Assembly: GCA_965116495.1 (NCBI GenBank) | Contig: OZ220696.1 | Span: forward strand, 3,712,001 to 3,776,000 | Length of the DNA: 64,000 nucleotides | From: Gammaproteobacteria bacterium | GTDB taxonomy: Bacteria; Pseudomonadota; Gammaproteobacteria; Eutrophobiales; Eutrophobiaceae | Direction of reading: 5' to 3' | Shown here: positions 28,563 through 45,538 of the stretch, in pieces | Position numbering within the stretch: the stretch's first letter is position 1 | Layout of the letters: every line of letters begins with the position of its first letter | Translations under genes and position numbers: made by a program | The notes under the pieces: generated by a model | The model's input: the letters and a program-made list of their open reading frames with translations, nothing else | Database searches by the model: none | What the model was told of the DNA's origin: nothing

Positions 28563-28704
28563 TTCATCCGCAGATTACGCAGATTAACGCAGATGTAATA
28601 AAATTATTGATAACAGAATAAGTTATCGATAACTAAAAAACTCCACAAGTTTATTAATTTTTATATTTTTATCTGCGGTAATCTGCGTAATCTGCGGATA
28701 AATC
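28561..28704. repeat. Family C element between convergent genes
   Basis: GATTCATCCGCAGATTACGCAGATTAACGCAGAT...ATCTGCGGTAATCTGCGTAATCTGCGGATAAATC. Confidence 0.85.
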
Positions 28705-30025
28705 ACGCTTTTTTATTTCTTATCAGACGGTTGGTATAGAACAGCAACAGCAGGGCCGTTGCCAAGTTGCCGGAGACGGCGGCTATGCCGGCGCCGACCA
28801 GGCCAATTTCCTGTAGCAGCAGGACCAAAACCGATATATGCAGGATGGTCGTGACTATCCTGACATTCATGGATATATCGGGACGGCCTATGGAATACAG
28901 GGCCGGGTCCAGGGCAAACGTGGTCATCATGATGGCGGCGGCAAACATGAGCAGGATGAGCACATCGTAAGCATTGATGTACTCTGCGCCGAAAGTCAGG
29001 CTTAACAGGGATTGGCCAAACACGAAAACCACCAGCAGGATAACGCCTGCGATGGCTCCCGCAACCAGCGCAGAGTGGGTGACGACGCTCCACAGGCGGC
29101 GGTAATCCTTGTTGACCGCAATTTTTGCCATTTCCGGGTAAACCGTTTCGTTAAACAGTTGTGCGGGTTTGAGCAGCACGGTCGAGGCTTCCTGGGCAAT
29201 CTTGAAAAGTCCGGCGCCCACCGGTCCCATCAGGAAGCCGACGATCAGGGTCGCGATGTGCGCGGTTGAAGCATACAGGGTTCGATGGACATGGGAAGTC
29301 CAGATGAATGACAGTATCCCCTCGTGGGGACGAATCAAGTGTTTGAGTTCGAGGTTCATACCTTTGCTCAAACCCCGGTGCCTGAATTCACGCCAGCCGA
29401 ACCAGACGGTACCGAGACACTGCACCGCGCCGGCGGCAAACCAGAACAACAGGAACGCGCTGACATGCTGGTAAAAGAGATATGCAAGACAAGCGCCGAC
29501 CAGGCGGATAGTCGGGACGACCATCAGCATGACGGCTATCAGGTCGAAGCGGTCGAACAGGCGCAGCAGGCCCAGGGGGGTTGCCTTGAAGTTGAACAGG
29601 ATCATGATGCAATAGACGGATGCCACCGGGACCAGTTCCGGCGTTACGCCGAATGACGGGCCGACGATGGGAATGACCAGGATGCCCACCAACGCGCCGG
29701 CAACGCAAAAGCCGATATCCAGCAGCATCGTAAATTTGACCAGTTTCTGAAAATCTCCCTCTTTATTGCTTTCCAGGCATATGGCGCCGTACCTGACTAC
29801 GCACTGCGAGGTCTTCAGCGTGACAAAATCACGCACTGCGACGGCATAAGCATGGATGAGTATGAGCACGCCGAAGTTATGCGCGCCGAGGGCGCGGGTG
29901 GCCAGGGCAAGGTAGAGCAATCCGACCAGGGCCGTATACACCTTGCCCGCAGTCAGCATGGCGGAATTCTTGAACACCCGGCGAAACAGGCCGTCGTCTA
30001 CTACTTGTTCAGCGCTGGAAGACAC
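28703..30025 (-). CDS. Wzx/MOP-family flippase downstream of spt
   Basis: ~12 hydrophobic segments, ATRALGAHNFG, PLGLLRLFDRFD, YPEMAK, FGAEY. Confidence 0.8.
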   Translation of the reverse strand: MSSSAEQVVDDGLFRRVFKNSAMLTAGKVYTALVGLLYLALATRALGAHNFGVLILIHAYAVAVRDFVTLKTSQCVVRYGAICLESNKEGDFQKLVKFTMLLDIGFCVAGALVGILVIPIVGPSFGVTPELVPVASVYCIMILFNFKATPLGLLRLFDRFDLIAVMLMVVPTIRLVGACLAYLFYQHVSAFLLFWFAAGAVQCLGTVWFGWREFRHRGLSKGMNLELKHLIRPHEGILSFIWTSHVHRTLYASTAHIATLIVGFLMGPVGAGLFKIAQEASTVLLKPAQLFNETVYPEMAKIAVNKDYRRLWSVVTHSALVAGAIAGVILLVVFVFGQSLLSLTFGAEYINAYDVLILLMFAAAIMMTTFALDPALYSIGRPDISMNVRIVTTILHISVLVLLLQEIGLVGAGIAAVSGNLATALLLLFYTNRLIRNKKA

Positions 30026-30061
30026 TGACTAATCCTGGAATATTTCCGACCATCCCGTCGC

Positions 30062-30124
30062 CATTCCTGCACAAGCAGGAATCCAATATGTTTACGTATG
30101 GATTCCGGCTTACGCCGGAATGAC
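30062..30124. repeat. Family E REP doublet
   Basis: CATTCCTGCACAAGCAGGAATCCA...TGGATTCCGGCTTACGCCGGAATGAC. Confidence 0.8.
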
Positions 30125-30195
30125 GTGCTGAAGTCTGAGTTCATGCTCGTCCGTCTATGGCTGGAGATTGGTTACTGAAGTCAGCAGGTGTCAGG

Positions 30196-31377
30196 TCATA
30201 CACTTGCAGACAACGCGGTAAACGCCCTACAAATTTTATCGATCTGTTCATCGGTATGCGCGGCGCTGACGCTGATGCGTACCAGTGATTTACCTGCCGG
30301 CGTGGCCGGGGGGAAGACCAGGTTGACGTAGATGCCATGTTCGTGCAGGCCGCGCCACAGCGCCAGGGCCTGCTCACGGGTGTCCAGCATGGCTGCGATC
30401 ACCGGGCAGGGCTCGGGTCCCAGTTCATAACCCGCATCAAGCAGGTGCCGGTACAGGCGGCGTGCGTGGCGCCAGAGCCGGGCGCGCAGGTCGGCGCCGT
30501 TTTCCACCCGTTTCAGCGCCTCGCGGGTGGACGCGATCACTGCGGGGCAGGGTGAGGCGGTGAAGATATAAGGCCGGCTCGCATAACGGATGAAGTCAAT
30601 CTGCGGGTGATTGCTGACACAGTAGCCTCCCGTGCTGGCCAGGCTCTTACTGAAGGTGCCGACGATAAAATCCGATTCGTTTATGACACCGGCCTCTTCG
30701 ACCAGCCCTCTGCCTCTCTCCCCCAGGACCCCGAGGGAATGGGCCTCATCGACCAGTAACAGCGCGCCGAAGGTGTTTTTTACCTCGATAATTTCCTTGA
30801 TGCGCGCCCTGTCACCCAGCATACTGTAGATACCTTCGATAATGACCAGGGTGTTGGCTGCGCGCTGTCCCAGCCGTTTCAGGCGTTTGTACAGGTCGTC
30901 CGGGTTGTTATGCCGGAACAGCACGATATCGGCGCCGCTCAGCCGGCAACCGTCGTAGATGCTGGCATGGCTGTCGGCGTCTATCAGGATCGTGTCGTCG
31001 TTATTCGTCAAGCCGGATATCACCGCCAGGTTTGCCTGGTAGCCGGTGGTGAATACCATGGCTTTGTCGCATTCGTAAAATGCCGCGATTTCCTGTTCCA
31101 GCGCGCGATGCCCGGCGAAGCTGCCGTTGGCCATTCTCGAACCGGTTGTTCCCGTACCCAGTTCATCCAGCGCCGCATGGGCCGCGTCCAGGCACTGTTT
31201 ATCGAAGGTGAGACCCAGGTAATTGTTGGTGCCGGCCAGGATCGTCCTCCTGCCGTTAATGCGCGCCTCCGTCGGGGAATAGATTTCTTCAATGGGCGCG
31301 CCGAAAGGGTCGACACCCTGCGCCAGCAGGTCATGCCGATCTTGTGCAAGGGACTGGAATTTGGCAAACAGGCTCAT
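30196..31377 (-). CDS. spt: Serine palmitoyltransferase (AOS family)
   Basis: ILAGTNNYLGLTFD, GTGTTGSRMANG, DADSHASIYDG, EGIYSMLGD, DEAHS, GTFSKS, RPYIFTAS; adjacent ACP. Confidence 0.9.
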   Translation of the reverse strand: MSLFAKFQSLAQDRHDLLAQGVDPFGAPIEEIYSPTEARINGRRTILAGTNNYLGLTFDKQCLDAAHAALDELGTGTTGSRMANGSFAGHRALEQEIAAFYECDKAMVFTTGYQANLAVISGLTNNDDTILIDADSHASIYDGCRLSGADIVLFRHNNPDDLYKRLKRLGQRAANTLVIIEGIYSMLGDRARIKEIIEVKNTFGALLLVDEAHSLGVLGERGRGLVEEAGVINESDFIVGTFSKSLASTGGYCVSNHPQIDFIRYASRPYIFTASPCPAVIASTREALKRVENGADLRARLWRHARRLYRHLLDAGYELGPEPCPVIAAMLDTREQALALWRGLHEHGIYVNLVFPPATPAGKSLVRISVSAAHTDEQIDKICRAFTALSASV

Positions 31378-31382
31378 GTTTG

Positions 31383-31535
31383 GGAACCTCTGATTAAGTC
31401 AGAGGTTCCTACGATACATGGACGTATCGTCAAAATCAATGACTATATGTCATTGATTTTGGGAGCAAAACAAAAAGCACATTTTTTGTTTTGCGCATTC
31501 TGAACAAGTCCTGGACGGACTTGTTCAGAGTTTCC
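31383..31535 (+). mobile_element. MITE family 1, internally deleted copy (153 bp)
   Basis: GGAACCTCTGATTAAGTC...GACTTGTTCAGAGTTTCC, between acp and spt. Confidence 0.85.
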
Positions 31536-31543
31536 GTAGATCC

Positions 31544-31795
31544 CTATGATGAGTTGATTACGGAGTGTACCCTGGTAGCCAGGTCCTTAACGGTATGGAC
31601 GTCCGCGAGCAGGTTGACCGGCAGCGATATGTCAAATTCATCTTCCATATCCATCAGCAGGTCCAGCACCTTGAATGAATCCAGTCCCAACTCCGTGACC
31701 AGGTTGGAATCTTCGTTCAACTCGACGCCGGACGGGGCCAGTCCGGACAGTTCAGTGTTAACCTTTGCCAGTATTTCCTCATAACTTACAGACAT
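31544..31795 (-). CDS. Acyl carrier protein (sphingolipid locus)
   Basis: ELGLDSFKVLDLLMDMEDEFDISLP. Confidence 0.92.
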   Translation of the reverse strand: MSVSYEEILAKVNTELSGLAPSGVELNEDSNLVTELGLDSFKVLDLLMDMEDEFDISLPVNLLADVHTVKDLATRVHSVINSS

Positions 31796-31869
31796 ACATC
31801 GTTCTCCATTATATATCCAGATGACGGGTTCTTGTGGGTGTGACTCAAAGTGTGGTCAAACTCCTTACT

Positions 31870-32027
31870 GTCATTCCTGCGCAGGCAGGAATCCAGTCGA
31901 TTAACTTGTTGCTTGCGCCTGCCCCTACATGTTGTAAGCGGGGGACACATTATAAGGTGTCCCTTCGGGACGTTTTTTCACTGGATTCCTGCTCCCTGCT
32001 TCCGCAGGGACAAGCTTCACAGGAATG
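31870..32027. repeat. Family E REP doublet with long spacer
   Basis: GTCATTCCTGCGCAGGCAGGAATCCAG...CTGGATTCCTG..CAGGAATG. Confidence 0.75.
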
Positions 32028-32154
32028 CCTGCCCCGGCATGTCGTTAGCCGGGGACGAACGAGAGACATCAATTTTGGTTCTGGCTTGGCCAGGTCAGGA
32101 TAGATGTACTGATTTTGACCACACTTTGAATCACCCCCGGTTCTTGTATTGCTA

Positions 32155-33063
32155 TTATATAACTGTGTCGATGACATCTGCCAAATGAATGTTCGGCCGC
32201 CATCCCAGTGCGTTCGTTAAAGGTGTGTTATCGCATACCCAGTCCTTGTGGGTAATCTCATTCACCTTACCGGGAGTGAGCATTGCAGGATAACGGAATA
32301 CCCGCGCCAGCAGCAGGTTGATATGGGCCATACCTTTCAGTAACATCACGGGGACCCGGATATGGATCAGCGGGCGCTTCCAGGTGTCGCGCCCGATAGC
32401 CATGATGTCCGCCCACCGGTAACCCGCGCGGGTGCCGTCATCCAGTTCGAACAGGCCGTGCACTTCCCTTGCCTGCAGCCATTTCAGAATGGCGCTGACC
32501 AGGTCATCAATGTGGATAAGGCTTATCCTGGCACCGGGTATCCCCGGCCCCAGCAAAATACCCCGTCGCATCAGCCGGAACATGGGACGCATTTCCTTAT
32601 CGCCGGGACCGTATACTGCGGTCGGGCGGTAAATGGTCCGAGATAATCCGCGGTAGCTGTCCGACATCAGCAGTGCCTCGGCCATCGATTTGCTGCGCGC
32701 ATACCAGGAGTAGTCCGGGCACCTGGCGGCGATTGATGAAATGAGCAGAAACCTGGCTGTTGGTGAATTTTTCCGGACTGCAGCCAGCAGGTTTTCAGTT
32801 CCCCTGAGGTTGACTTCCAGGAAGCCCTCCAGTGAATTGCCCCTGACCGCGCCGGCGCAGTGTATGACGGAAGTACACCCCTCGACCAGTTCAGCCAGTG
32901 CGGTTTGATTGTTCAGGTCGCCGTTGATCCAGGTTACCAACCCGGAATCGGGCCTGTCGCGGCGGGTCAATGCCCGGACCGGATATCCTGATTTGTCAAG
33001 TGCGGCGAGAAGGTTTGACCCGAGAAAGCCTGTGGCTCCTGTCAGCGCCACCTGCTCCGTCAT
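32155..33063 (-). CDS. NAD-dependent epimerase/dehydratase family; probable ceramide reductase CerR
   Basis: ALTGATGFLG, YARSK, RPTAVYGPGDKEM, MLTPGKVNE; between acyl ligase and ACP/spt. Confidence 0.75.
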   Translation of the reverse strand: MTEQVALTGATGFLGSNLLAALDKSGYPVRALTRRDRPDSGLVTWINGDLNNQTALAELVEGCTSVIHCAGAVRGNSLEGFLEVNLRGTENLLAAVRKNSPTARFLLISSIAARCPDYSWYARSKSMAEALLMSDSYRGLSRTIYRPTAVYGPGDKEMRPMFRLMRRGILLGPGIPGARISLIHIDDLVSAILKWLQAREVHGLFELDDGTRAGYRWADIMAIGRDTWKRPLIHIRVPVMLLKGMAHINLLLARVFRYPAMLTPGKVNEITHKDWVCDNTPLTNALGWRPNIHLADVIDTVI

Positions 33064-33069
33064 GGTCAC

Positions 33070-33231
33070 AGCCCGCATTTCTTACCAGATAATGCACCCT
33101 CACTTGTCTTTTTGCCGTCAGCGGGCACGTGCTTCCTCAACCGTAGCTACTGCTATGCTTTCGGTCGCAGGCACCCGCTGACAGCAAAAATCCTATGTGA
33201 TCTTTGCATCATCTGGTAAGAAATGCGGGCT
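33070..33231. mobile_element. MITE family 2 (162 bp)
   Basis: TIRs AGCCCGCATTTCTTACCAGAT / ATCTGGTAAGAAATGCGGGCT; longer relative at 42132-42460. Confidence 0.85.
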
Positions 33232-33238
33232 AAACAGA

Positions 33239-34990
33239 TTACGCGGTTTCAGCTTGTGATGTGATGGCCTGAGCCAGGTCTACCCTGTCTGTAAAGCCCT
33301 TGCGTGCGGCAACGCGGGACAACTTGCCTGATGAAGTACGCGGCAAGGTATGCGGCGCGACCAGGTCAACGTAGCAGTAAATTCCAAAACCCTCGTACAC
33401 TTTCCTCTGCAGGTGCTTGATTAACGATTGCCTGGCCGTGGCTTCCGTAAGGCGGCATTCAACCACCAGCACTACGATCTGCCGGCCGTCGTCGGCTTCG
33501 ATATCAAATGCCGAGGATTCGCCCATCCTGATTTCGTCCAGGTCCTCCGCTATCTCTTCCAGGTCCTGGGCGCGGATGTTCCTGCCGTTAACGATGATGA
33601 TGTCTTTGCGCCGTCCCGTCAGGTAGAGGTTTTGCTCGAACAGGTACCCCAGGTCACCGGTATCCAGCCAGCCGTTTTCCAGTATCACCCGGTCGGTTGA
33701 TTCCTGGTCGTTCAGGTAACCGTTCATCAGGCTGGGGCCTTTTACCAGCACCCTGCCGACGCGCAGGTCGGACAATATATCCCCGTCGTTGTCAACAATC
33801 CTGATCTCGTGATCAGGCAGGGCGCGACCGCAATTAACGATTTCATTCACCTTGCGGCTATCGGACTGTACGCGCACGGCAATGCCGCGCTCGGCCATGG
33901 TCAGCGCGTCCACGGACATGACGTCCAGGCCGCGGTCCAGTTCCGAGAACGTCGCGGCAAGCGATGCCTCGGCCAGACCGTAACAGGGCAGGAAAGCATT
34001 GGAGTTAAACCCGGTTTCAGCCATGGTTGCCGCAAACGCCTCGAATGTGCTGGAACGCAGCATCTCTGCGCCGATGCCGGCAATGCGCCAGCAACCCAGG
34101 TCAAGCTGCTGCAGGTCTGCGCTGCGAATTCTACGGGTGCAAAGTTCGTAACCGAACGGCGGCGAGAAGGCGATGGTGCAACGGTTCCTGCTGATCAGGC
34201 GCAGCCATTGCAAGGGCCGAATGGCAAAATCCCGTGTGCGCAGGTAATCCACCGACAACTGGGAGGCGATGGGACCCAGGACGAAACCGACCAGCCCCAT
34301 GTCATGGTAGAACGGCAACCAGGATGCGCAACGATCGCCGTTATGTACTTTCAGCCCGCTTCTTGTTATCCCCTGCAGGTTACTCATTACCGCCTTGCCG
34401 GTAATGATTACCCCCTGCGGGGCGCGGGTGCTGCCGGAAGTAAATTGCAGGTAGGCCGGTTCCTCAGGCCTGCTTGGCTCGAGAGAACGACCTGACGGGG
34501 TAATGTCAGACAGTTGTTCCGGTGTGCCAATCCATTCGAGTTCATCGTTATCCACGGCTGCTTCTTCAAGGAAGCTGATGAACTCTTTGTGGGCGATGGC
34601 CACCTTTGCCTTGCCGCCGGTCAGCAAGCCTTTGAGTTGTTGCACGTAAACTGCATGGCTGCCGAGGTTCAGGGGGATCGGCATGGCGAACGGGACAAGC
34701 CCGATATACTGGCAGGCAAAGAACAGTACGATGAAATCGGGGTGAGTATCGGCGACGAGCGCGATATGATCGCCGCGTTTAAGATTCAGGCTGAGAAGAC
34801 GGCGAGCCGCGAGCCTGGCTTGCTGCTGCAGATCGGGGTAAGGCAGGACGACGCTGAGCCTGCCCCGTGCATCATAAAAATTACACCCGGTAATACCTGC
34901 GGCTGCGTAGTCAAGCGCTTCAGACAGACAGGAGAAGCCGGCTAGATTTTGCGCTAGAGTATTATCAGTGGTCGTCGCTTCTCGATTCAC
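33239..34990 (-). CDS. Fatty acyl-AMP ligase / acyl-ACP synthetase
   Basis: YLQFTSGSTRAPQG, SWLPFYHDMGLVG, PCYGLAEA, WLDTGDLG, LPRTSSGKL. Confidence 0.92.
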   Translation of the reverse strand: MNREATTTDNTLAQNLAGFSCLSEALDYAAAGITGCNFYDARGRLSVVLPYPDLQQQARLAARRLLSLNLKRGDHIALVADTHPDFIVLFFACQYIGLVPFAMPIPLNLGSHAVYVQQLKGLLTGGKAKVAIAHKEFISFLEEAAVDNDELEWIGTPEQLSDITPSGRSLEPSRPEEPAYLQFTSGSTRAPQGVIITGKAVMSNLQGITRSGLKVHNGDRCASWLPFYHDMGLVGFVLGPIASQLSVDYLRTRDFAIRPLQWLRLISRNRCTIAFSPPFGYELCTRRIRSADLQQLDLGCWRIAGIGAEMLRSSTFEAFAATMAETGFNSNAFLPCYGLAEASLAATFSELDRGLDVMSVDALTMAERGIAVRVQSDSRKVNEIVNCGRALPDHEIRIVDNDGDILSDLRVGRVLVKGPSLMNGYLNDQESTDRVILENGWLDTGDLGYLFEQNLYLTGRRKDIIIVNGRNIRAQDLEEIAEDLDEIRMGESSAFDIEADDGRQIVVLVVECRLTEATARQSLIKHLQRKVYEGFGIYCYVDLVAPHTLPRTSSGKLSRVAARKGFTDRVDLAQAITSQAETA

Positions 34991-35215: not shown

Positions 35216-35662
35216 TCAGGCCGGCCACGACGACCTGAGTTCATCCCGCAGTTGATTGAAGACCGTGCTGTCAACCTCGTTATTATGCCCCAGGTCCGGC
35301 GGTCCGGGCCAGCCGGAATCGGTGAATTCCACCTGCGCATAATGACGTATTGCCGCATAACGCGGAATTACGTGAAAATGGACGTGGGGATCAACCATCA
35401 TCAACATCAGGTAGTTCAGTTTATCATACTGAAAAAGGTGCGATAATACCGTGTCGATATCATGTGTAACCCGGGCCAGTTCAGTGAACGCAGCCTGGCT
35501 GAGTTGCGAAAATGCCATTACCGGTTCGCGGGCAACCAGAACCAGGGCGCCCAGTGTTACTTGAGCGGGTCGCAGCAATACCAACCAGGTGGAATACGTA
35601 TGGATAGTCGTTTCAGGCGCCCCGAATTTCAACATGGTATCGTTCAGGGTGTTGAAAGACAT
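35216..35662 (-). CDS. HIT family hydrolase
   Basis: LRPAQVTLG, NYLMLMMVDPHVHFHVIPRY. Confidence 0.9.
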   Translation of the reverse strand: MSFNTLNDTMLKFGAPETTIHTYSTWLVLLRPAQVTLGALVLVAREPVMAFSQLSQAAFTELARVTHDIDTVLSHLFQYDKLNYLMLMMVDPHVHFHVIPRYAAIRHYAQVEFTDSGWPGPPDLGHNNEVDSTVFNQLRDELRSSWPA

Positions 35663-35788: not shown

Positions 35789-36931
35789 ATGAAACGTAAG
35801 CCGATTGACGAAATACGGGTGGTGCCGGTGAGTAACAGGCGTCAGTTGAATGCGTTTATTCGCTTGCCCTGGCGCCTGTATGCGCAGGACTCCCTGTGGG
35901 TGCCGCCATTGAAACTCGAACGCCGGTTGCATTTGTCCTCCCTGAACCCTTATTTTGCCCATGGCCGCTGGCAGGGCTGGGTCGCCTGGCAGGGGGACCG
36001 GCCGGCAGGCCGTATCAGTGCCCAGGTTGATGAATTGCACCGCCGCCGTTACGGCGAGCAATCCGGCCATTTCGGCTTCCTGGAGTGTGAAAACAACCCG
36101 GATGTGATGCGCGCGCTGGTAGCGGAAAGCGAGCGGTGGCTGGCGCAGAACCAGACCGAGGTGGTTACGGGCCCGTTCAATTTTTCCATCAACCAGGAAT
36201 GCGGCCTGCTGGTGGACGGTTTCGATACCCCGCCGGTAATAATGATGCCCCATAACCATCGCTGGTACGCAGACCTGCTTGAACAACAGGGCTATGCCGC
36301 CGCTAAAGACCTGTACGCCTATTGGATCAGGCCCGACTTCACCATACCGCGGGTGATGCAGACCTTGGTGGACAGGTTTGGCAAGTCCGTCAGGCTGAGG
36401 GGGTTGAACCGGAAGAATTTCAAACAGGAACTGGAGACCCTGCGGGATATTTTTAATGATGCCTGGTCCGGTAACTGGGGCTTCGTCCCGTTCACCAGGG
36501 AGGAGTTTGCCGAACTAGGCACCAGTTTACGCCTGTTCGTGCCGGATGACTTTATCCGTATTGCGGAATACCGGGGGAAGGCGGTTGCATTTATCGCCAT
36601 CCTGCCCAACCTGAATGAAGTCCTGCAGGACCTGGACGGCAATTTATTCCCGTCGGGGCTGTTTAAAATTATCCGGGCATTGCGCAAACGCCGCATCAGG
36701 ACGGGCAGGATACCGTTAATGGGGGTGAGGAAAGAATTGCAGAATACCCCGTTGGGAGTTGCCCTGGCGTTACTTGTCATACATGACCTCAGGCAGCCGG
36801 TTATCGACAGGGGAATAGAAGGCGTGGAAATGTCATGGATACTGGAGGACAACCAGGGGATGCGCAGCATCCTGGACAAGATTGGCAGCAGGCTGTACAA
36901 GACTTACCGGATCTACCGGAAGCAGTTATAG
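35789..36931 (+). CDS. GNAT-fold protein; probable bacterial ceramide synthase bCerS
   Basis: WVPPL, GRISAQVD, GPFNFSINQECGLLVDGFDTPP, FNDAWSGNWGFVPFT, EMSWILEDN, YKTYRIY; spt neighbourhood. Confidence 0.82.
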   Translation: MKRKPIDEIRVVPVSNRRQLNAFIRLPWRLYAQDSLWVPPLKLERRLHLSSLNPYFAHGRWQGWVAWQGDRPAGRISAQVDELHRRRYGEQSGHFGFLECENNPDVMRALVAESERWLAQNQTEVVTGPFNFSINQECGLLVDGFDTPPVIMMPHNHRWYADLLEQQGYAAAKDLYAYWIRPDFTIPRVMQTLVDRFGKSVRLRGLNRKNFKQELETLRDIFNDAWSGNWGFVPFTREEFAELGTSLRLFVPDDFIRIAEYRGKAVAFIAILPNLNEVLQDLDGNLFPSGLFKIIRALRKRRIRTGRIPLMGVRKELQNTPLGVALALLVIHDLRQPVIDRGIEGVEMSWILEDNQGMRSILDKIGSRLYKTYRIYRKQL

Positions 36932-36956: not shown

Positions 36957-37757
36957 ATGCCCACTGAGCGGAAAATCGTCACCTTGCTGTTGGCCGGGGA
37001 CCGCAGCGGCGTCGATGAGGTTGCCCGCGCTGCCGGCGTCTCCTGCAAGGCACTGGCGCCGCTGGCGGGAATACCGATGATCGTGCGGGTGATCGACGCC
37101 TTGCAGGCGAGCAGGCGGATTAACTCCTTCGTACTGTGCGGTCCGGGTCCGGACGCCGTGAACGCCTGCCCGCCGTTACGGGAATTCATTGATCTCGACA
37201 ATGTCACCCGGGTCCCCGCCGGGAACAGTCTCAGCAACAGTGTGCAGGCCGGTCTGGCAAGGATCGATCCCGCCGCGCTTGTGCTGATCACGACTGCGGA
37301 CCACCCGTTGCTGGACGCCGGCATCCTTGATTATTTCCTGGACAGGGTCATTGACAGCCGCGCCGACGTTAACGTCGGGCTGGTGGAATACGGGTTGATC
37401 GAGACGGCCTGGCCCGGCACGCGGCGCACCGTGCTGAAATTTTCCGACGGCGGCTACTGCGGCTGTAACCTGTATGCACTCTCCGGTGACCGGGCAAGAG
37501 ACATAATTTCACTGTGGCAACGCATACAGACGCAGCGCAAGCAGCCCTGGCGGATGGCCCTCAACCTGTTCGGTATCGGCGCACTGGCAAAGTATGCCTG
37601 CGGCCGCCTGAGCATCCGCCAGACCCAACAGGCCATCCTCAAAACCACCGACATCGCGGTGGACTTCATCAACCTGCCCTTCCCCCAGGCCGGCATCGAC
37701 GTAGATACCCCCGCAGACAAGGAACTGGTGGAACGGATACTTGCCCCCAATCCCTAA
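36957..37757 (+). CDS. MobA-like nucleotidyltransferase family protein
   Basis: LLAGDRSG..KALAPLAGIPMI, ITTADHPLL, YCGCNL, IDVDTPAD. Confidence 0.82.
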   Translation: MPTERKIVTLLLAGDRSGVDEVARAAGVSCKALAPLAGIPMIVRVIDALQASRRINSFVLCGPGPDAVNACPPLREFIDLDNVTRVPAGNSLSNSVQAGLARIDPAALVLITTADHPLLDAGILDYFLDRVIDSRADVNVGLVEYGLIETAWPGTRRTVLKFSDGGYCGCNLYALSGDRARDIISLWQRIQTQRKQPWRMALNLFGIGALAKYACGRLSIRQTQQAILKTTDIAVDFINLPFPQAGIDVDTPADKELVERILAPNP

Positions 37758-37847: not shown

Positions 37848-38578
37848 TTATAAGGGACTAACAACACTCTCGGCATTCTCCAGGTCTCTTTTAAAATCTA
37901 TCTCACACCAGCGCAGACCTCTGATACCGCAGGCGCGCACCAGTGATTGTTTAGCCAGCTCATCCACAACACTCAGGAACCATAAACGCAGACCGGTTCC
38001 CTGCTTCATCTGCCGGTCGAGGTGATCGCGGAATAGTGCCGGTCCCATTCCCCGGAAATACAGCAGGCCGATGGATTCCGCCATGGTGTGTTCATCCGGT
38101 AACGTTTTACCGATGGCCTTCACCATGGAGTCTTCCAGTTCGACCCGCATATCATCATTATCGTACCTGTCTTTGTAGTCGATGGTTAATGTGACCGGCG
38201 CCGCCGGTGAATTGAGCACAGTGTCCAGTAAAGCCGGTTCAAACAGCGTGTCTCCATTCAATAAAAGAAAATCCCCGTCCATTGCGTGACGGGCCATCCA
38301 GCAACTCGCCAGGTTGTCGGAAACACTGTAGAAGGGATTGAAAACGATGTTAATCCTGTCAGGTCAGCGCCGAAACGGTCGTTGATATGTTCCTCTATGA
38401 GCCCCGAGTTAAACCCGGTGATGATGGAAATCCTGTCGATCTTGGCCGCCAGCAGTGCCGCCACCTGCCACTCCAGTATGGGTTTGCCGGCAACGGCAAG
38501 CATGCACTTGGGGCGCGTCTCGGTCAGGGGCAGCAGTCTTTTCCCCTGGCCTGCGCTCAATATTATCGCGTTAGTCAT
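37848..38578 (-). pseudogene. Frameshifted LicC-like cytidylyltransferase
   Basis: N-half AIILSAGQGKRLLPLTETRPKC and C-half FNPFYSVSDNLASCW..LLNGDTLFE..WCEIDF in different frames; GTCAG duplicated at 38358-38367. Confidence 0.85.
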
Positions 38579-38665: not shown

Positions 38666-38758
38666 GTCATTCCGGCGCAAGCTGGAATCCGGTCAATCAA
38701 TCTTGATTATTTTACAAGGAAGATTCCCTCACTGGATTCCGGCTCGCGCCGGAATGAC
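38666..38758. repeat. Family E REP doublet
   Basis: GTCATTCCGGCGCAAGCTGGAATCC...GGATTCCGGCTCGCGCCGGAATGAC, followed by an 18-bp tandem repeat. Confidence 0.8.
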
Positions 38759-38836
38759 GGGAAGCTTGGACTTGACGGGGGCCTTGGACTTGACAGGGGC
38801 CTTGGATGTAAAAAGTATGCGATTGTTTTGAACCGT

Positions 38837-39916
38837 ATGTCACATATTGAACGCTATATCATTCTGGAAGTTCTCAGGCCCTTCAGCTTCGTATTAATCA
38901 TCCTGGTTGCCATGTTCGCCTGTTTCAGCAGCGCAAGATACCTGGCGGAAGCGGTGACGGAGACCCTGGGTGTCTATTTCATGCTCAAGCTGGTTGTACT
39001 GAAGACGCTCATCGCCCTGGAAGTCCTGGTTCCCATTGCCCTCTACACCTCCGTCGTGATTGGCCTTGGCAGGCTGCACCAGGACCGTGAGATAGTGGCC
39101 CTCAGCGCCGCGGGTGTCGGTAACAGTCGCATTATCGGTCCGATCATCGTCATATCCATACCCATTGCCCTGGTGGTGGGCGCGCTGTCCCTTTACGGCC
39201 GTCCCTGGGCCTACCAGAACAGTTATATCCTGGATGCCACGGCCAAGGCCGACCTGAATACGGACCGGTTCCAGGCAGGACGGTTCTACGGCAACGAAGA
39301 TACCGGTACGGTTATCTACATTGCCGAAAAGGATGAGGCGAGCGGCGCGATGTCCAGGATATTTTACTATACCCGCAAGGAGGAGGTCAGTGAGATCACC
39401 GCGGCGGTGAGCGCCGGTCAGGACAGGGGCGCGGAGGACGAGAGGCTGCGGGTGTCACTCCATGACGGCTTGCAGTACAGGTTGCAGCAGGGTTCAAGGG
39501 AGGATGAAGTCATCCGCTTTGAAAAGCTGGTCAGGTATCACGAGGATCCCGAGTTGAGTATCGGTTATAAACGCAAGGCCGAGGCGACGCTCACGCTGCT
39601 CAAGTCCGACAGGCCGGAAGATATCGCCGAACTCCAGTGGCGCTTGTCCCGTCCCGTTGCCACGTTGCTGCTCGCGCTGATCGCCATACCCCTGAGTCGC
39701 TCGTCGCCCAGGCAGGGGAAAAATGAGAGGGTATTCACGGCTGCATTGATATTTGCGGTGTATTACAACCTGAACGGCGTCGCCCAGTCCTGGGTGGAGC
39801 AGGGCGTGATGGACGAGATACCTGGTGTCTGGTGGTTGCACACGCTCATGGCGCTGGTCGTGTTCATGTTCCTGTATGAAAGATTTAACCGGCGTTATTT
39901 GCAAGGATTCCGTTAG
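38837..39916 (+). CDS. lptF: LptF-family permease
   Basis: IERYIILEVLRPF, LGRLHQDREIVALSAAGVG, AELQWRLSRP, ALIAIPLS. Confidence 0.9.
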   Translation: MSHIERYIILEVLRPFSFVLIILVAMFACFSSARYLAEAVTETLGVYFMLKLVVLKTLIALEVLVPIALYTSVVIGLGRLHQDREIVALSAAGVGNSRIIGPIIVISIPIALVVGALSLYGRPWAYQNSYILDATAKADLNTDRFQAGRFYGNEDTGTVIYIAEKDEASGAMSRIFYYTRKEEVSEITAAVSAGQDRGAEDERLRVSLHDGLQYRLQQGSREDEVIRFEKLVRYHEDPELSIGYKRKAEATLTLLKSDRPEDIAELQWRLSRPVATLLLALIAIPLSRSSPRQGKNERVFTAALIFAVYYNLNGVAQSWVEQGVMDEIPGVWWLHTLMALVVFMFLYERFNRRYLQGFR

Positions 39917-39924: not shown

Positions 39925-40995
39925 GTGCCAGTGAGTATTTCTGAAAAATACCTGATGCAGCAGATCAGCGTGGGGTTGTTGATCGCGGCCGCGGTCCTGC
40001 TGCCGCTGTTCTGCTTCTTTGACCTGATTGAACAGATGGAGGATATCGGTGAAGGTTTTTACCGCGCGCAGGATGCGTTTTACATCGTCCTGTTGCTGTC
40101 GCCCAGGAGGTTGATTCAACTGCTCCCGTTTATTGCGCTGATCGGCAACGTGATTGCGCTCGGGAGGCTGGCGCTGAATTCGGAAATTATCGCCATGCGC
40201 GCGGCCGGGCTGTCACCGACGAGAATCAGCCTGGCATCCTTCAAGGTGGGCCTGTGCCTGTTGCTGTTGCTGGGGGTACTGGAGCAGTATGCCGCGCCGT
40301 ATATGCAGAACAAAGCCATCGCCCATCGTCTGGACGCCTTGAACCAGAGTGCGGAACTGGGTGCCGACCTGGGCATCTGGACACGGGATGAAAACCGGAT
40401 TTTGCGGCTTGGTGAGGCTATCCGCGCGGCCTACGTGGAGGACGTGGAGATTTTCACCCTGGATGAACAGGGTTTGCTCAGCAGCTACATCCATGCGCAG
40501 GACGCCGAGATAATCAGTAACGAAAAGTGGAGGTTGTACGACGTCACCATGAAAGAATTTACCGACACCCGGGTAAATACGACGTCTTCAGCGCGCATGA
40601 ACTGGCGCCCTTTTCTGAGTTCCGAGCAGGTTGACAAACTGACCAGACAGGCTGGAAGCCTGTCGCCGACGGATCTATACCGCCATATCCTTTACCTGAA
40701 GAAGACGGGCCAGCAACATGATGAGCTCTCACTGGCCTTCTGGCGGAAATTCGGCACCGGTCTGATCATGCTGGCCATGCTGCTGTTGTCGGTACCGTTT
40801 GTATTCGGATCGATTCGGACGGGCATCGGCTCGCGCCTGGTACTTGCCGGTATCACGGGGATCTGCGTGTACTTGCTGGACCAGATTTTATCCAACGCCG
40901 GATTATTGCTGAACATGAACCACGCACTGGTGGCGTTGTCACCCGGAATTGCGCTGATGCTGATAGGCCGCCTGTGGCTGGAGCGGGTGGCGTGA
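39925..40995 (+). CDS. lptG: LptG-family permease
   Basis: LLPFIALIG, LGRLALNSEIIAMRAAGLS, VPFVFGSIR. Confidence 0.9.
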   Translation: MPVSISEKYLMQQISVGLLIAAAVLLPLFCFFDLIEQMEDIGEGFYRAQDAFYIVLLLSPRRLIQLLPFIALIGNVIALGRLALNSEIIAMRAAGLSPTRISLASFKVGLCLLLLLGVLEQYAAPYMQNKAIAHRLDALNQSAELGADLGIWTRDENRILRLGEAIRAAYVEDVEIFTLDEQGLLSSYIHAQDAEIISNEKWRLYDVTMKEFTDTRVNTTSSARMNWRPFLSSEQVDKLTRQAGSLSPTDLYRHILYLKKTGQQHDELSLAFWRKFGTGLIMLAMLLLSVPFVFGSIRTGIGSRLVLAGITGICVYLLDQILSNAGLLLNMNHALVALSPGIALMLIGRLWLERVA

Positions 40996-41000
40996 AAGGC

Positions 41001-41174
41001 AATTAGGAATTACGAATTAGGAACAGGTGGACTACGTCTCTACGTGCCTCGGTTCGGCGTGCGAAAAACCTGAGGAGCATTGAAAAACCGTCGCCACAGG
41101 TGGCACATTCATTCCTAATTCCTAATTCGTAATTCGTAATTCCTAATTCCTAATTCGTAATTCCTAATTCGTAA
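41001..41174. repeat. Inverted heptamer tandem arrays (family F)
   Basis: AATTAGG/AATTACG x3 ... mixed TTCCTAA/TTCGTAA x9; supplies the stop of the downstream convergent gene. Confidence 0.9.
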
Positions 41175-42066
41175 CTATCCTCTCCCGATCCGGCTCGAAA
41201 TTCTGCGTTTCCCCGTTAAGGATAAATGACCTGATTGAGGTCAGCCAACCGTTCGAGGTCCTGGTTACCTGGTAAATATTGTAGCCTGCCCTTTTATCCG
41301 GGTTTTTGTAACTGGCGGAAGCGGACGGCACGCCGAACACCGGGATTGAGTGGGCGCCGGCCTCGAGTACTGCATGCAACTGGCGGTGCCCGTGACCGTG
41401 AACAATCAGTTCCGCGCCCGGTCCTGACAGGTTCGCCAGCAGCGCGTCCGCATCGGTTAGTCCGCGTCTGAAGCTTGATGATTGTGGACCGTGATGCAGT
41501 ACAACGATGCGGTATAAACCCCGTTGCGCGGTCGTTTCCAGCAGGTGGCTGAGGCGTCGCAACTGTTCATTGCCCAGTTTGCCGCTGGCGAGAAAGGGCG
41601 CCGTGGGTATTGCCGTTGACAGGCCGATGAGCGCCACCGGACCGCGCACCCGCAGGTAGGGAAAGGCGGCGGTGTTGTCGCGTTCACCCGGATCACCCTG
41701 CATATAGGCCCGCCAGCGTCCGGTCGTTTGGGCAAAATCGGTGGCCACGTACTGATCATGATTCCCCGGTATGATTGATACATCACGGGGCTGGCCGGCG
41801 CTGTTTAACCAGGCTTCGGTTTCCCGGCATTCATTTTCCGTGCCCAGGTGGGTAAAGTCGCCGCTGATGACCAGGTGGTCGGCCTGGTGCCGCGCCAGGT
41901 CTGCAAGAGTAAGGGACAGGACTTCCCTGCTGTGCGAGTCACGGCGCTTCAGTTTCCATGAAAGATACCCGAGAATTCGCTTGTTCAGCAAGTCCCACCA
42001 TTTGATGTGGTCCAGCGACGTCAGGTGGGGATCGGAAATGTGGGCAATCTTCAGGCTTGGATTCAC
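41164..42066 (-). CDS. Calcineurin-like metallophosphoesterase
   Basis: HISDPH, SGDFT, IPGNHD, LHH, HGHGH. Confidence 0.92.
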   Translation of the reverse strand: MNPSLKIAHISDPHLTSLDHIKWWDLLNKRILGYLSWKLKRRDSHSREVLSLTLADLARHQADHLVISGDFTHLGTENECRETEAWLNSAGQPRDVSIIPGNHDQYVATDFAQTTGRWRAYMQGDPGERDNTAAFPYLRVRGPVALIGLSTAIPTAPFLASGKLGNEQLRRLSHLLETTAQRGLYRIVVLHHGPQSSSFRRGLTDADALLANLSGPGAELIVHGHGHRQLHAVLEAGAHSIPVFGVPSASASYKNPDKRAGYNIYQVTRTSNGWLTSIRSFILNGETQNFEPDRERIVTN

Positions 42067-42131
42067 GTTGACGGGTTAAGAGTGTATTATCCGGGTAAAT
42101 ATTAGCACAGCACCCGGATTACAAGTTATAA

Positions 42132-42460
42132 AGCCCGCATTTCTCACCAGTCCGCTTGTTGTCACCGGATAGTTGTTTGCTGTCAATACGTTATGATAAC
42201 CTGCTCACAATGTCATCATTACAGACTGCGCTTGATGCGCCTTCGCTTGTCTTTTTGCCGCCAGCGGGCACGTGTTCATTGCGCCCATCCTTGGGCGCAT
42301 CAACTACGGCTATGCTTTCGGTCGCAGGCACCCGCTGGCGGCACAAATCTGCCAGGAGCAGATTTGGACGTCCGCAGGATGCCCGAAGGGTGTGCGCCAA
42401 GGAAGGCGCACATCTAAAATCCTGCGCGATCATCACATCAACTGGTGAGAAATGCGGGCT
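42132..42460. mobile_element. MITE family 2, 329-bp copy with nested family B repeat
   Basis: TIRs AGCCCGCATTTCTCACCAGT / ACTGGTGAGAAATGCGGGCT; shared core TTGTCTTTTTGCCG..GCTATGCTTTCGGTCGCAGGCACCCGCTG. Confidence 0.85.
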
Positions 42461-43627
42461 ATGAATGCGCATGTTCAAATCATCGGCGACAGCCGGACAA
42501 AGATATGGGGGATGACCGGCCGTGAAAGGCTGGTCCGTATGCTGGACAGGAGCGCCGGCGTGGAAATCACTGCTCCGGGGGAGAGATTGCCGTCCGGCGC
42601 GCCGGTCATTTTTCTCAGAGGAGATTACCTGTTCGATGCCCGGGTATTGCAGGCTGTTACGGGTCTGGACGGCGAGTTTGTCCTGTACAGGCAGGATGGC
42701 CGGACTGCCGTTGCCATCCGCACAAACGACCCTGACGAAAACATATTCAATCGTGACCATTACCCGGAAGCATTAGAAAGAATTAGGCTGGATGACCTGG
42801 TCAATCCGTACAACGAGCGGTTGAAAAAATATGAACAGGCCAAGGTCTGGCAGATTAAGCCTGACAACCGGGATTTTCTTGAGCAGGAGCTGTTCAGTGG
42901 TTCCTACAAAGGCGTAACCGACCTGGTGACCAAATGGGTCTGGCCCCTGCCCGCAAGGTGGGCGACAAAAATGTGTGCCAGGCTTGGTTTGAAACCGAAC
43001 CACGTGACCATATTCAGCCTGGTGCTGGCAATCCTGGCCGGCATTGCCTTCTGGTATGGGGAATACGCCGGCGGCCTGTTGCTGGGCTGGTTAATGACCT
43101 TCCTGGATACCGTGGACGGCAAGCTGGCCAGGGTGACGCTGACCTCGAGCCGTTTCGGTGACCTGCTGGACCATGGCCTGGACCTGGTACATCCGCCGCT
43201 CTGGTATGTTGCCTGGGGGGTGGGATTGGCCGCGCAGACGCCGTTGCCGGGGTCGTTGGCAATGCTGTTGTGGCTGATGTTCGGCGCGTATGTCTGTGGC
43301 CGTCTGTGTGAAGGAGTGTTTCAGCATTACATTGCCGATTTCTCTATCTTCATGTGGCGGCCTGTTGATTCACTGAGCCGCCTGATTACTGCCCGGCGTA
43401 ATCCGAATATGCTGATATTGACGGCCGCGGTGATGGCCGGGCGGCCCGACACCGGGCTGGTGCTCATCATCGCCTGGCACCTGCTGTCCACCCTGTTCCT
43501 GATCATCAGGCTCGCTGTTGCCTGGCAGGCGAGCCGGAACCAGGGGCCGCTGGAGAGTTGGCTGGAACGGGTCGGACCGGAAACCCGGCACAACAGGGTG
43601 GCTGTGAAGATGTTCAGGAAGCTCTGA
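42461..43627 (+). CDS. CDP-alcohol phosphatidyltransferase family (CpgA-like)
   Basis: SYKGVTDLVTKWVWP, PNHVT, FLDTVDGKLARVT..GDLLDHGLD (DGxxAR motif), ITARRNPN. Confidence 0.88.
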   Translation: MNAHVQIIGDSRTKIWGMTGRERLVRMLDRSAGVEITAPGERLPSGAPVIFLRGDYLFDARVLQAVTGLDGEFVLYRQDGRTAVAIRTNDPDENIFNRDHYPEALERIRLDDLVNPYNERLKKYEQAKVWQIKPDNRDFLEQELFSGSYKGVTDLVTKWVWPLPARWATKMCARLGLKPNHVTIFSLVLAILAGIAFWYGEYAGGLLLGWLMTFLDTVDGKLARVTLTSSRFGDLLDHGLDLVHPPLWYVAWGVGLAAQTPLPGSLAMLLWLMFGAYVCGRLCEGVFQHYIADFSIFMWRPVDSLSRLITARRNPNMLILTAAVMAGRPDTGLVLIIAWHLLSTLFLIIRLAVAWQASRNQGPLESWLERVGPETRHNRVAVKMFRKL

Positions 43628-43836
43628 TTAAGTCCGTCCGGGACTTGTCAGAACACGCACAAATCGGCGGGATAGCCGATTTGCACAACTTGTTGCCGCC
43701 TTGCGGCGAGCTACCAGGATGTAGCGAGTGAAAACAAAAATGCGATTTTTGTTTTGCTCCCAAAATCAATGACCTACAGTCATTGATTTTGACGGCACAT
43801 CCCTGTACTGTAGGAACCTCTGACTTAAGAGGTTCC
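43617..43836 (-). mobile_element. MITE family 1, inverted full-length copy
   Basis: Reverse complement of 20397-20618 element; provides the TGA stop of the upstream gene. Confidence 0.85.
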
Positions 43837-43841
43837 TGTAC

Positions 43842-44804
43842 ATGAGACGGTTTTCAGGCCCCGACGTCCCGCCGGCATTAACGGACGCCGTCGCACGCCA
43901 ATGTGCCGGGACCGTGCCGGATTCCTGTGCTGCCATCACCGACGCAATCAGGGAATCCTACGGTGCGGCGCTTGTGGGTGTCCTGTTGTATGGATCCTGC
44001 TCACGGGATGAGGCCGTGGAGGATGGCATCGTTGATATCTATGCCATTGTCGATGACTATCAATCTGTTTATGAAAAACGTTACCTGGCAACCCTGAATG
44101 ACTGGTTGCCGCCTAACGTGTTTTACCGGGAAATATCCAGCAACCACGGTTTGATCAGGATAAAACTGGCGCTGATCAGCCTGGCGGATTTCCGCGGCGG
44201 TATCCTGGACTGGTTCCATTCCTACCTGTGGGGGCGTTTTGCCCAGCCGGCGCGCATACTGTACGTGCGGGATGAAACGCTGCGCAACGAACTTCATGGA
44301 CTCATGGCGCAGGCCGTGCTGACCCTGCTCAGGGCATCGATTCCAGCCCTGGGGGAAAAGTCCGGGGATGCAGAGGCAATCTGGACCCGGGCCCTGGCGT
44401 TATCCTATTCCGCGGAATACCGGCCGGAACCCGGCACCAAGGCCGGCCAGCTGGTCAGGTCCGATCCGGCCGCTTACAGCGGGTTGCTGGAGGCCGCCTT
44501 GCCCGCGCTCGGCGCCAAGCTGCGCCGGCAGGGTGAAGATGATTACCTGTGCCTGGGCGATCGCGGTGACAGCAAGGCGGCATTGCGCCGCTGGCGCCTG
44601 CGCCGCTGGCAGGGGCGCGTGCTGTCCGTACTGAGGTTGATGAAGGCGACCCTGACCTTTCAAAACGGTGTGGATTATGCCGCCTGGAAGATAAACCGGC
44701 ATACCGGGGTCAGTATAGAAGTCACCCCGCAACTGCGCCGCCATCCCCTGTTGTTCGGCTGGCAGGTCTTCCGGCAACTGGTCAAACGGGGCATTATACA
44801 TTAA
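43842..44804 (+). CDS. Tam41/Mmp37-like nucleotidyltransferase (CpgC-like)
   Basis: LLYGSC..GIVDIYAIVDDY, LPPNVFY, WGRFAQP, LSYSAEYRPE. Confidence 0.6.
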   Translation: MRRFSGPDVPPALTDAVARQCAGTVPDSCAAITDAIRESYGAALVGVLLYGSCSRDEAVEDGIVDIYAIVDDYQSVYEKRYLATLNDWLPPNVFYREISSNHGLIRIKLALISLADFRGGILDWFHSYLWGRFAQPARILYVRDETLRNELHGLMAQAVLTLLRASIPALGEKSGDAEAIWTRALALSYSAEYRPEPGTKAGQLVRSDPAAYSGLLEAALPALGAKLRRQGEDDYLCLGDRGDSKAALRRWRLRRWQGRVLSVLRLMKATLTFQNGVDYAAWKINRHTGVSIEVTPQLRRHPLLFGWQVFRQLVKRGIIH

Positions 44805-44806
44805 CC

Positions 44807-45538
44807 ATGGAGACGGTGAAGAAAAAGCACCGGCCCAGCGTGGCGCTGGGATTGTGGATCATCAAGCGGGTGGAGCAGTTTCTGATCAGGCATTCCCTGG
44901 TCGGCGACACGCCTTTCCTGCCGTCCGCGGCCTTTGCCTGGGTGGAGACGCTGGAAGCCAACTGGCAGGTGATTCGCGCGGAGCTGGACCAGGTGTTGAA
45001 GACCCCGGAACGCATCCCGAATTTTCAGGATATATCGCCCGACCAGGCCAACATTACCCGGGATGACAAGTGGAAGTCGTATTTTCTTTACGGATACGGC
45101 TACAAAATGACCGACAACTGTGATCAGTGTCCCGAAACGACGCGTATTATCGAATCAATACCCGGTATGTTCACGGCTTTTTTTTCCGTCCTGGCGCCGG
45201 GCAAGCACATACCCAGGCATCGCGGACCTTACCGCGGCCTGCTGCGCTGTCACCTGGCGCTGGTCGTACCCCGGCCGCGGGAAGCGTGCTGGATAGAAGT
45301 GGGTGAGGAGACAACCACCTGGGAAGAGGGGCGCTGTATTGTTTTTGATGATACCTATAAACACCGGGTGGAGAACAACACCGACGGGGTCCGGGTGGTG
45401 CTGTTTCTCGACGTATTGCGCCCGTTAAGATTTCCCTGTTCACTCATCAACCGGATCATGCTGCAACTGATCCGGCTCTCGCCGTTCATCCAGGATGCCC
45501 GCCGCAACCAGGTGGCCTGGGAGAAGCGCCTGGGTTAA
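44807..45538 (+). CDS. Aspartyl/asparaginyl beta-hydroxylase family (LpxO-like) dioxygenase
   Basis: LEANWQVIRAE, WKSYFLYGYG, FSVLAPGKHIPRHRGPY, FDDTYKHRVEN. Confidence 0.9.
   Translation: METVKKKHRPSVALGLWIIKRVEQFLIRHSLVGDTPFLPSAAFAWVETLEANWQVIRAELDQVLKTPERIPNFQDISPDQANITRDDKWKSYFLYGYGYKMTDNCDQCPETTRIIESIPGMFTAFFSVLAPGKHIPRHRGPYRGLLRCHLALVVPRPREACWIEVGEETTTWEEGRCIVFDDTYKHRVENNTDGVRVVLFLDVLRPLRFPCSLINRIMLQLIRLSPFIQDARRNQVAWEKRLG

Follow-up and report, generated by a model that had tools for sequence, protein, structure and literature searches.

The closest described counterpart of the locus considered here is the sphingolipid locus of Caulobacter (CC_1152-CC_1168, or CCNA_01210-01226), a set of 17 genes (PMC11324152) that includes aasR, cerR, acpR, spt, bcerS, cpgA-D, CC_1153, and lptF2/G2/C2 (PMC11324152, PMC9393093, PMC12275187, PMC13228409, 10.64898/2026.04.12.717747). 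Among its products are the Tam41-domain protein CpgC (CC_1161), CpgA, two nucleotidyltransferases, and a second LptFG pair (PMC11324152), as well as a flippase (CC_1166), a HIT protein (CC_1157), and a calcineurin-like phosphoesterase (CC_1158) (PMC11324152 S1 Text). As reported for Caulobacter, CpgA without the ceramide kinase CpgB gave no ceramide phosphoglycerate (CPG) (PMC11324152), loss of cpgB leaves neutral ceramide only, and CpgC acts downstream of ceramide phosphate, with ceramide-1-phosphate as its substrate (both PMC9393093). In Nitrosomonas eutropha, CC_1154, 1153, 1156, 1155, 1159, 1160, and 1161 map to the consecutive genes Neut_1100-1106 (PMC11324152 S2 Table). Here, we describe a gammaproteobacterial counterpart without cpgB, located at positions 28703..45538 of a 64,000-nucleotide stretch (positions 3,712,001 to 3,776,000 of contig OZ220696.1, assembly GCA_965116495.1), which we call the window.

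The pathway is already known; what stands out is the repeated loss of its kinase and the linkage to the cluster of a hydroxylase from another family. We read the cluster, with a probability of about 0.5, as encoding a Caulobacter-type anionic sphingolipid pathway without the kinase: to judge from sequence, its product would likely be a hydroxylated ceramide (di)phosphoglycerate (CPG or CPG2), with DgkA, encoded elsewhere in the genome, as the predicted source of ceramide-1-phosphate. Throughout, G-numbers denote genomes (G000 is the source genome), and L-numbers denote loci or stretches.

Comparison with described loci

Every gene that an initial annotation had listed between 28703 and 45538 is present by domain and NCBIfam searches, and its reading of the cluster as one for ceramide synthesis, decoration, and export was right. 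By published descriptions, domains, and the bridge through N. eutropha (rather than by direct protein alignment), 14 of the 17 Caulobacter genes have a counterpart here, which accounts for all genes of the cluster except the hydroxylase. The match is gene for gene from CC_1152 to CC_1166 except for CC_1160 (CpgB); the source genome also lacks a CC_1167-like gene and a second full-length LptC. Extra here are the OlsC/LpxO-type hydroxylase and, in the genome, DgkA, which the Caulobacter control lacks.

The N. eutropha run consists of bcerS, the CC_1153-like gene, lptF2, lptG2, cpgA, cpgB, and cpgC, and the same order is found here, with six of the seven genes matched at 39-57% identity (the comparison used two loci that show the published order, from strains other than that of the published run). 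Unlike the N. eutropha run, the one here has no cpgB, takes in cpgD and the phosphoesterase gene, lies next to the spt operon, and has the hydroxylase gene behind its cpgC. The phosphoesterase and the flippase, both present here, are reported absent from N. eutropha, A. vinelandii, and P. luteola. For the Escherichia coli yghO / aas-cerR-acp-spt / lptG-lptF locus (L042), the ceramide core, LptFG paralogues, and flippase of the cluster are the best matches, and that stretch holds no counterparts of cpgA-D.

Loss of the ceramide kinase

That no kinase lies in the cluster had been noted initially, and this extends to the whole genome: searches with PF00781, with a relative's kinase (tblastn), with a hidden Markov model (HMM) of 61 kinases, and with a 12-row profile found no CpgB in the source genome, nor any kinase remnant (best E value of 1.2 with the HMM). 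The 12-row profile found CpgB in 0 of 23 genomes of the genus; its four weak matches there fall at loci with high PF00781 scores and appear to be YegS-like. Where L031, L046, and the Nitrosomonadaceae loci carry the kinase, the source genome has a spacer of multi-copy repeats.

In other lineages, the kinase gene is closely associated with cpgC. Among the best 80 of 224 cpgC loci, it lies directly upstream of cpgC in all those without the genus layout for which upstream DNA is available, except L066, whose genome carries cpgB elsewhere. The kinase adjoins cpgC in 19/19 loci drawn from the phylum's other classes and, within the class, in 8/12 loci from a draw of 400 genomes (one genome unscored). 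Two of the four nonadjacent cases have cpgB unlinked; the other two, G315 and G393, are without it, as is G858, a congener of G315. Because cpgB is unlinked but present in G057, G324, G091 (a weaker match, E value of 4e-33), G856, and G857, we did not count these genomes as losses. Three changes are needed on a CpgC tree of 60 rows (leaving out L015 and L179), in which the kinase-bearing L046 is sister to the genus. Loss of the kinase is genus-wide and repeated, though the enzyme has been thought to be required.

L046, the nearest relative to keep cpgB, has a frameshift near the 5′ end of the kinase gene (L046:9000-9975), which could be either an assembly error or an incipient loss; its genome is without DgkA. 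The metagenomic contig L227 (L227:712-10309) has a rearranged full cluster, in the order cerS, nucleoside triphosphate transferase gene, lptFG, cpgC, hydroxylase, HIT, cpgD, phosphoesterase, and cpgA, with no kinase in the stretch.

A candidate substitute for the kinase

By analogy with Caulobacter, CpgC probably still needs ceramide-1-phosphate, since its invariant residues are retained in 22/22 kinase-less rows; with CpgC acting downstream of ceramide phosphate, a source of ceramide-1-phosphate would therefore be required. One candidate is DgkA: the source genome encodes a typical one, at genome position 3011467, which aligns over 115 residues with solved DgkA structures (E value of 2e-31). 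DgkA occurs in 20 of 22 genomes of the genus (the two without it have completeness values of 77% and 83%), as well as in the other kinase-less genomes G315, G858, and G393, and in only 18 of 80 cpgB-bearing genomes. It is lacking from G041 and G024, the closest relatives that carry the kinase, and from the Caulobacter control, and no near-complete genome that we examined has cpgC and neither kinase. (The tally leaves out G619 and G636, which are possible duplicates, and one part of the survey took 50 of the 80 cpgC loci.) In vitro, ceramide is a substrate for phosphorylation by E. coli DgkA, which has been used to assay it (PMC2213006). The available part of the CpgB paper makes no mention of DgkA (PMC10331486), and in open-access full text (the scope of our literature searches, bioRxiv supplements lying outside it) we found no report of DgkA replacing CpgB.

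The head group

The initial annotation regarded one cytidylyltransferase as broken and, from this, the missing kinase, the hydroxylase, and the flippase, argued for a head group unlike that of Caulobacter. The break lies in cpgD and stems from an error in the assembly. The source assembly is one base short near 38360 relative to five aligned relatives, a gap unique to it; 17 of 19 relatives' stretches have the gene in a single frame, and the remaining two do not contain it; and the contigs of 4/4 sequencing runs from the same organism carry the extra base at full depth and are otherwise identical (the four runs come from one study, possibly of the source material, and each holds 99% of the region's words). 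On these grounds, we rejected a genuine cpgD pseudogene. When residues are mapped by motif spacing (not by alignment to Caulobacter CpgD), the intact L013 orthologue matches G12, R16, K26, N90, N110-G111-D112, M147, K161, S170, and W201 of CpgD and has Ser at positions T88 and T93. In the described active site, N90, N110, M147, K161, and S170 contact or bridge to glycerate (PMC12275187, PMC13228409). That an intact orthologue keeps residues spaced like this site argues that the head-group donor is still cytidine diphosphate (CDP)-glycerate.

We therefore find most of the case for a new head group unsupported. The loss of the kinase and the addition of the hydroxylase are real and genus-wide, but the flippase, the HIT protein, and the phosphoesterase exist in Caulobacter too, and what the missing kinase and extra hydroxylase suggest is a replaced enzyme and a hydroxyl on the acyl chain, not a new head group. 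Some leeway for a differently decorated sphingolipid comes from a phosphonate operon within the window and from relatives that insert an amidotransferase gene and a TagF/CC_1167-like gene; tblastn found no match to either of these add-on genes in the source genome, and with the break in cpgD explained and the CpgD binding residues conserved, we consider such a product improbable.

The add-on pair occurs in three genus members (L050:10959-14008, L090:10962-14011, and L021:212-3298) and encodes an asparagine-synthetase-like amidotransferase and a protein of 374 amino acids (aa). It sits between cpgC and the hydroxylase gene or after the flippase gene, in or at the edge of the cluster. Homologues of the 374-aa protein occur in L178 and L183, two sphingolipid loci of the alphaproteobacterial type, and it may be the product of a CC_1167/TagF-like gene; the glycerate head group could be amidated or extended by the pair.

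The remaining head-group genes are conserved. CpgA, CpgC, and the CC_1153-like protein are 52%, 47%, and 39% identical to the N. eutropha proteins at the Neut_1104, Neut_1106, and Neut_1101 positions, respectively, and all three genes are under purifying selection (the ratio of nonsynonymous to synonymous substitution rates, dN/dS, is 0.21-0.31 for cpgC and 0.05-0.31 over the 13 cluster genes tested). The Tam41-like protein of the initial annotation is confirmed as CpgC, its weak family match (E value of 5e-4) agreeing with the fold: an AlphaFold model (predicted local distance difference test, pLDDT, of 84) has structures of Tam41, a CDP-diacylglycerol synthase, as its best Foldseek matches (E value of 4e-8). 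This conservation bears on the possibility that the host makes neutral (hydroxy)ceramide only, with the cpg genes decaying or serving glycerolipids (for example, CpgC as a second CDP-diacylglycerol synthase). Such an outcome would resemble the cpgB mutant of Caulobacter, and phosphatidic acid is the natural substrate of the Tam41 fold; however, every cpg gene tested is under purifying selection, the source genome has its own CdsA, and LptF2G2, reported to be essential in Caulobacter only when the anionic lipid is made (10.64898/2026.04.12.717747), is kept in 18/18 stretches from the genus. We regard a purely neutral product as very unlikely.

Two genus members, G006 and G011 (L026 and L027), have a reduced cluster that lacks the HIT gene, the CC_1153-like gene, cpgD, and cpgA and still keeps cpgC, the phosphoesterase, the hydroxylase, the flippase, and lptFG2, a composition that predicts CPG without CPG2. 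An earlier count of five members keeping cpgC without cpgA was cut to these two: G004, G010, and G013 have no cpgA in the cluster and a divergent copy (39-50% identity) elsewhere in the genome.

The cluster-linked hydroxylase

The last gene, initially designated an LpxO-like hydroxylase, belongs to the Asp/Asn-hydroxylase family (PF05118) and is present genus-wide; the protein falls below both NCBIfam cutoffs (OlsC, 263 < 450; LpxO, 141 < 500) and is nearer to OlsC than to LpxO. His138 and His186, which we take to be the iron ligands, align with AspH, and the gene is under purifying selection (dN/dS, 0.11-0.17). Among the best 80 of at least 324 relatives, the 22 closest, all metagenomic (60-82% identity), lie in sphingolipid loci without exception, and 16 of the next 58 are beside spt or bcerS.

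OlsC and LpxO 2-hydroxylate the acyl chains of ornithine lipid and lipid A, respectively (PMC12971839). The protein considered here shares with them the Fe/2-oxoglutarate family and the metal-binding histidines, and differs in missing both cutoffs, in belonging to a clade tied to sphingolipid loci, and in occurring in a genome without OlsB (no match to PF13444, the one route to ornithine lipids covered by the search). Nor does the source genome contain a PF04116 hydroxylase. In Caulobacter, ceramide hydroxylation has been assigned to CC_0202, of the DesA family, and the hydroxyl governs colistin sensitivity (PMC11324152). From family and context, we infer that the cluster-linked enzyme is a ceramide acyl hydroxylase that would do the job of CC_0202; we found no report of an OlsC/LpxO-type ceramide hydroxylase in open-access full text.

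The hydroxylase is present in all three kinase-less lineages and was considered as a correlate of kinase loss. We claim no causal link, because the kinase is kept in 14 of the 22 closest hydroxylase loci and the hydroxylase occurs in 6 kinase-bearing genomes among the 64 searched. More distant relatives of the hydroxylase occur in other sphingolipid-like loci (L278-L298, L251-L252, L284, L287, and L297), where they adjoin spt and bcerS or sit between two acyl-ACP (acyl carrier protein) ligases and spt.

Proposed pathway

Going by established orthologues, AasR would load a fatty acid onto AcpR, Spt would condense it with serine, and bCerS would N-acylate and CerR reduce the product to dihydroceramide. 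CpgD would make CDP-glycerate; CpgA and the CC_1153-like and CC_1158-like proteins would add the second phosphoglycerate; and LptF2G2, with shared LptB, would extract the lipid toward the outer membrane. The remaining steps are proposed here: DgkA may stand in for CpgB; CpgC, as a Tam41-fold cytidine triphosphate (CTP) transferase, may turn ceramide-1-phosphate into CDP-ceramide en route to CPG; the OlsC-like dioxygenase may hydroxylate the N-acyl chain; and the Wzx-type protein may flip the lipid.

Several points weigh against this reading. The DgkA pattern derives from two solid lineages (the genus, and G315 with G858) plus G393, for which the loss of cpgB is questionable, as related genomes carry the kinase apart from cpgC (the G393 genome is 94% complete). 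About 12 of 18 cpgB-bearing gammaproteobacterial genomes outside the Nitrosomonadaceae also have DgkA, so that finding it in 3/3 kinase-less lineages has a chance of ~0.3; the low overall background comes mostly from the Nitrosomonadaceae and other classes. As such, the co-occurrence is statistically weak (2-3 lineages), and dgkA is unlinked to the cluster. CpgC has drifted within the genus at three otherwise conserved positions (S54, Y67, and Y193). One of four PF00487 desaturase-family genes in the source genome could be CerH. The presence of LpxC indicates that the host makes lipid A, which the hydroxylase could use as its substrate in the manner of LpxO. Finally, the correspondence with Caulobacter is the indirect one described above.

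The weakness of the DgkA pattern and its lack of linkage leave room for a product that is still CPG or CPG2 and is reached differently, with ceramide-1-phosphate supplied by some other, unrecognized kinase or phosphotransferase, or with CpgA placing phosphoglycerate directly on ceramide. Three methods found no DAGK-family or CpgB-like gene in the source genome, and direct transfer by CpgA sits poorly with both the reported failure of Caulobacter CpgA to yield CPG without CpgB (PMC11324152) and the persistence of cpgC in G006 and G011, whose clusters lack cpgA as well as cpgD and the CC_1153-like gene. We judge these routes unlikely, although not negligibly so, and retain DgkA as the predicted kinase. 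A stronger form of this proposal, which we put forward only tentatively, is a double nonorthologous replacement: DgkA, known as a ceramide kinase solely in vitro, would fill that role in the cell in two or more gammaproteobacterial lineages, each having lost cpgB independently, and the OlsC/LpxO-type dioxygenase would represent another class of ceramide hydroxylase in bacteria, unrelated to the first and widespread in cpgC/spt loci.

Ceramide core and export genes

The features of the cluster are collected in Table 1.

Table 1. Features of the sphingolipid cluster, with positions in the window
Feature	Position	Strand	Basis or remark
Wzx/MOP-type flippase, counterpart of CC_1166	28703..30025	-	PF01943, E value 7e-11
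Serine palmitoyltransferase Spt	30196..31377	-	NF047599, 613.7 bits (cutoff 500); pyridoxal phosphate (PLP) lysine K244
Acyl carrier protein AcpR, dedicated	31544..31795	-	PF00550; DS motif at 39-40
Ceramide reductase CerR	32155..33078	-	PF01370; NAD-dependent reductase
Acyl-ACP synthetase AasR (fatty acyl-AMP ligase)	33239..34990	-	NF006624, 796 bits (cutoff 600)
HIT protein, counterpart of CC_1157	35216..35662	-	PF01230; HVHFH at 93
Bacterial ceramide synthase bCerS (CC_1154/YghO orthologue)	35789..36931	+	380 aa; sequence and synteny
MobA-like nucleotidyltransferase, counterpart of CC_1153	36957..37757	+	PF12804
CpgD (CC_1152), CTP:phosphoglycerate cytidylyltransferase	37848..38578	-	Two frames in assembly; one-base error near 38360
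LptF2, second LptF paralogue	38828..39916	+	TIGR04407, over cutoff
LptG2, second LptG paralogue	39925..40995	+	TIGR04408, over cutoff
Calcineurin-like phosphoesterase, counterpart of CC_1158	41164..42066	-	PF00149; by domain and position only
CpgA (CC_1159), CDP-alcohol phosphotransferase	42452..43627	+	PF01066
Spacer at cpgB site	43628..43841		Multi-copy intergenic repeats only; 45 blastn matches in genome
CpgC (CC_1161), Tam41-fold nucleotidyltransferase	43842..44804	+	Weak Tam41 match, E value 5e-4; fold model
Fe(II)/2-oxoglutarate hydroxylase, AspH/OlsC/LpxO family	44807..45538	+	PF05118; starts 2 bases after cpgC

Family searches bear out the minus-strand series of ligase, reductase, ACP, Spt, and flippase, in which aasR-cerR-acpR-spt form one run. 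The Spt candidate is a serine palmitoyltransferase rather than BioF or Kbl, as had been proposed: it exceeds the cutoff of NF047599 and falls short of those for BioF (335.6 < 426) and Kbl (309 < 460), and the ranking in PDB agrees, with solved Spt structures as best matches (E value of 3e-130, versus 2e-65 for Kbl). It is 53% identical to E. coli Spt. AcpR shares 50% identity with the ACP encoded in the E. coli spt locus, CerR is the best match in the genome to the reductase of that locus (40%), and the identity of AasR is also backed by synteny with E. coli and the relatives.

The protein that had been taken for a GNAT-type bCerS has no Pfam or NCBIfam match, and a PDB sequence search gave nothing. 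It is a bCerS orthologue by sequence and synteny: it is the sole match in the source genome to YghO of the E. coli spt locus (48%, E value of 1e-127) and shares 57% identity with its syntenic counterpart in N. eutropha, the first gene of the run, which matches Neut_1100 (CC_1154). The GNAT label is not shown by the fold, the single-sequence model being unusable (pLDDT of 33).

The cluster lptFG genes are paralogues, since the housekeeping pair lies elsewhere (lptF at genome position 3080174, 31% identical to LptF2; the housekeeping LptG is 25% identical to LptG2). For LptC, the source genome yielded one full match and one partial match (E value of 3e-5, inside a 902-aa frame) and no second full-length protein. 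The sphingolipid-locus LptFG pair is reported to work with shared LptB (10.64898/2026.04.12.717747). A lineage without lipopolysaccharide (LPS) was rejected, as LpxC is found in 15/16 genomes of the genus. The flippase is the single best match to that of the E. coli sphingolipid locus (33%); CC_1166 has IPR002797 (PMC11324152 S1 Text). In L031, from the sister genus, an MsbA-like ABC transporter replaces the flippase after spt (L031:2779-4524).

Host and genomic setting

The source genome consists of one contig of 4.34 Mb and is 99.5% complete; a gammaproteobacterial host, as first supposed, is in keeping with its close relatives, which are uncultured Gammaproteobacteria. The description of the cluster as an island does not hold: bCerS is present in 21/22 genomes of the genus, xdhC flanks the cluster in 16/18 genus stretches, and its GC content (56.0%) is near that of the genome (54.7%), so that the locus is ancestral in the genus rather than recently acquired. 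No match was found in two other sampled genera of the family or in G023. Two runs from sponge metagenomes have 0.21-0.24 of the words in common with it, which we counted as no evidence on habitat.

Throughout the genus, the cluster is flanked by cofD and cofE, for coenzyme F420 synthesis (window 45603-47416, minus strand). Repeats, many of them palindromic and like repetitive extragenic palindromic (REP) elements, lie in 10 of 13 cluster spacers (including window 38725-38765, 41090-41160, and 45539-45602), with 40 to >300 blastn matches each in the genome. Unrelated insertions occur in the clusters of relatives: an RTX-repeat serralysin-like protease and an IS605/TnpB-type gene (L028:5189-8002 and L030:6679-7845). 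The phosphonate genes (window 13069-16892, minus strand) encode phosphonopyruvate decarboxylase, a phosphoenolpyruvate mutase-nucleotidyltransferase fusion, and a further nucleotidyltransferase, possibly for a phosphonate-decorated lipid or glycan. Genes for MlaA, MlaC, a glycosyltransferase, and a radical SAM/DUF3463 protein (window 6905-10674, minus strand), along with hpnA, a CDP-alcohol transferase gene, and hpnN ~27 kb upstream (L211:7823-12311), are likely hopanoid genes; the host would therefore have LPS, hopanoids, and sphingolipids.

Implications

Because the pathway itself is known, the value of these results lies in a set of directly testable enzyme assignments. If they are true, cpgB would be unusable as a marker of phosphosphingolipid producers, and any DgkA-bearing bacterium with ceramide genes could make ceramide-1-phosphate, an example of possible producers being the 364 of 5426 E. 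coli genomes that have spt. The proposed CDP-ceramide intermediate offers a structural hypothesis for CpgC, the mechanism of which was called unidentified in PMC12275187. The cluster would also name a candidate new ceramide hydroxylase, one that would place the hydroxyl that governs colistin sensitivity in Caulobacter (PMC11324152).

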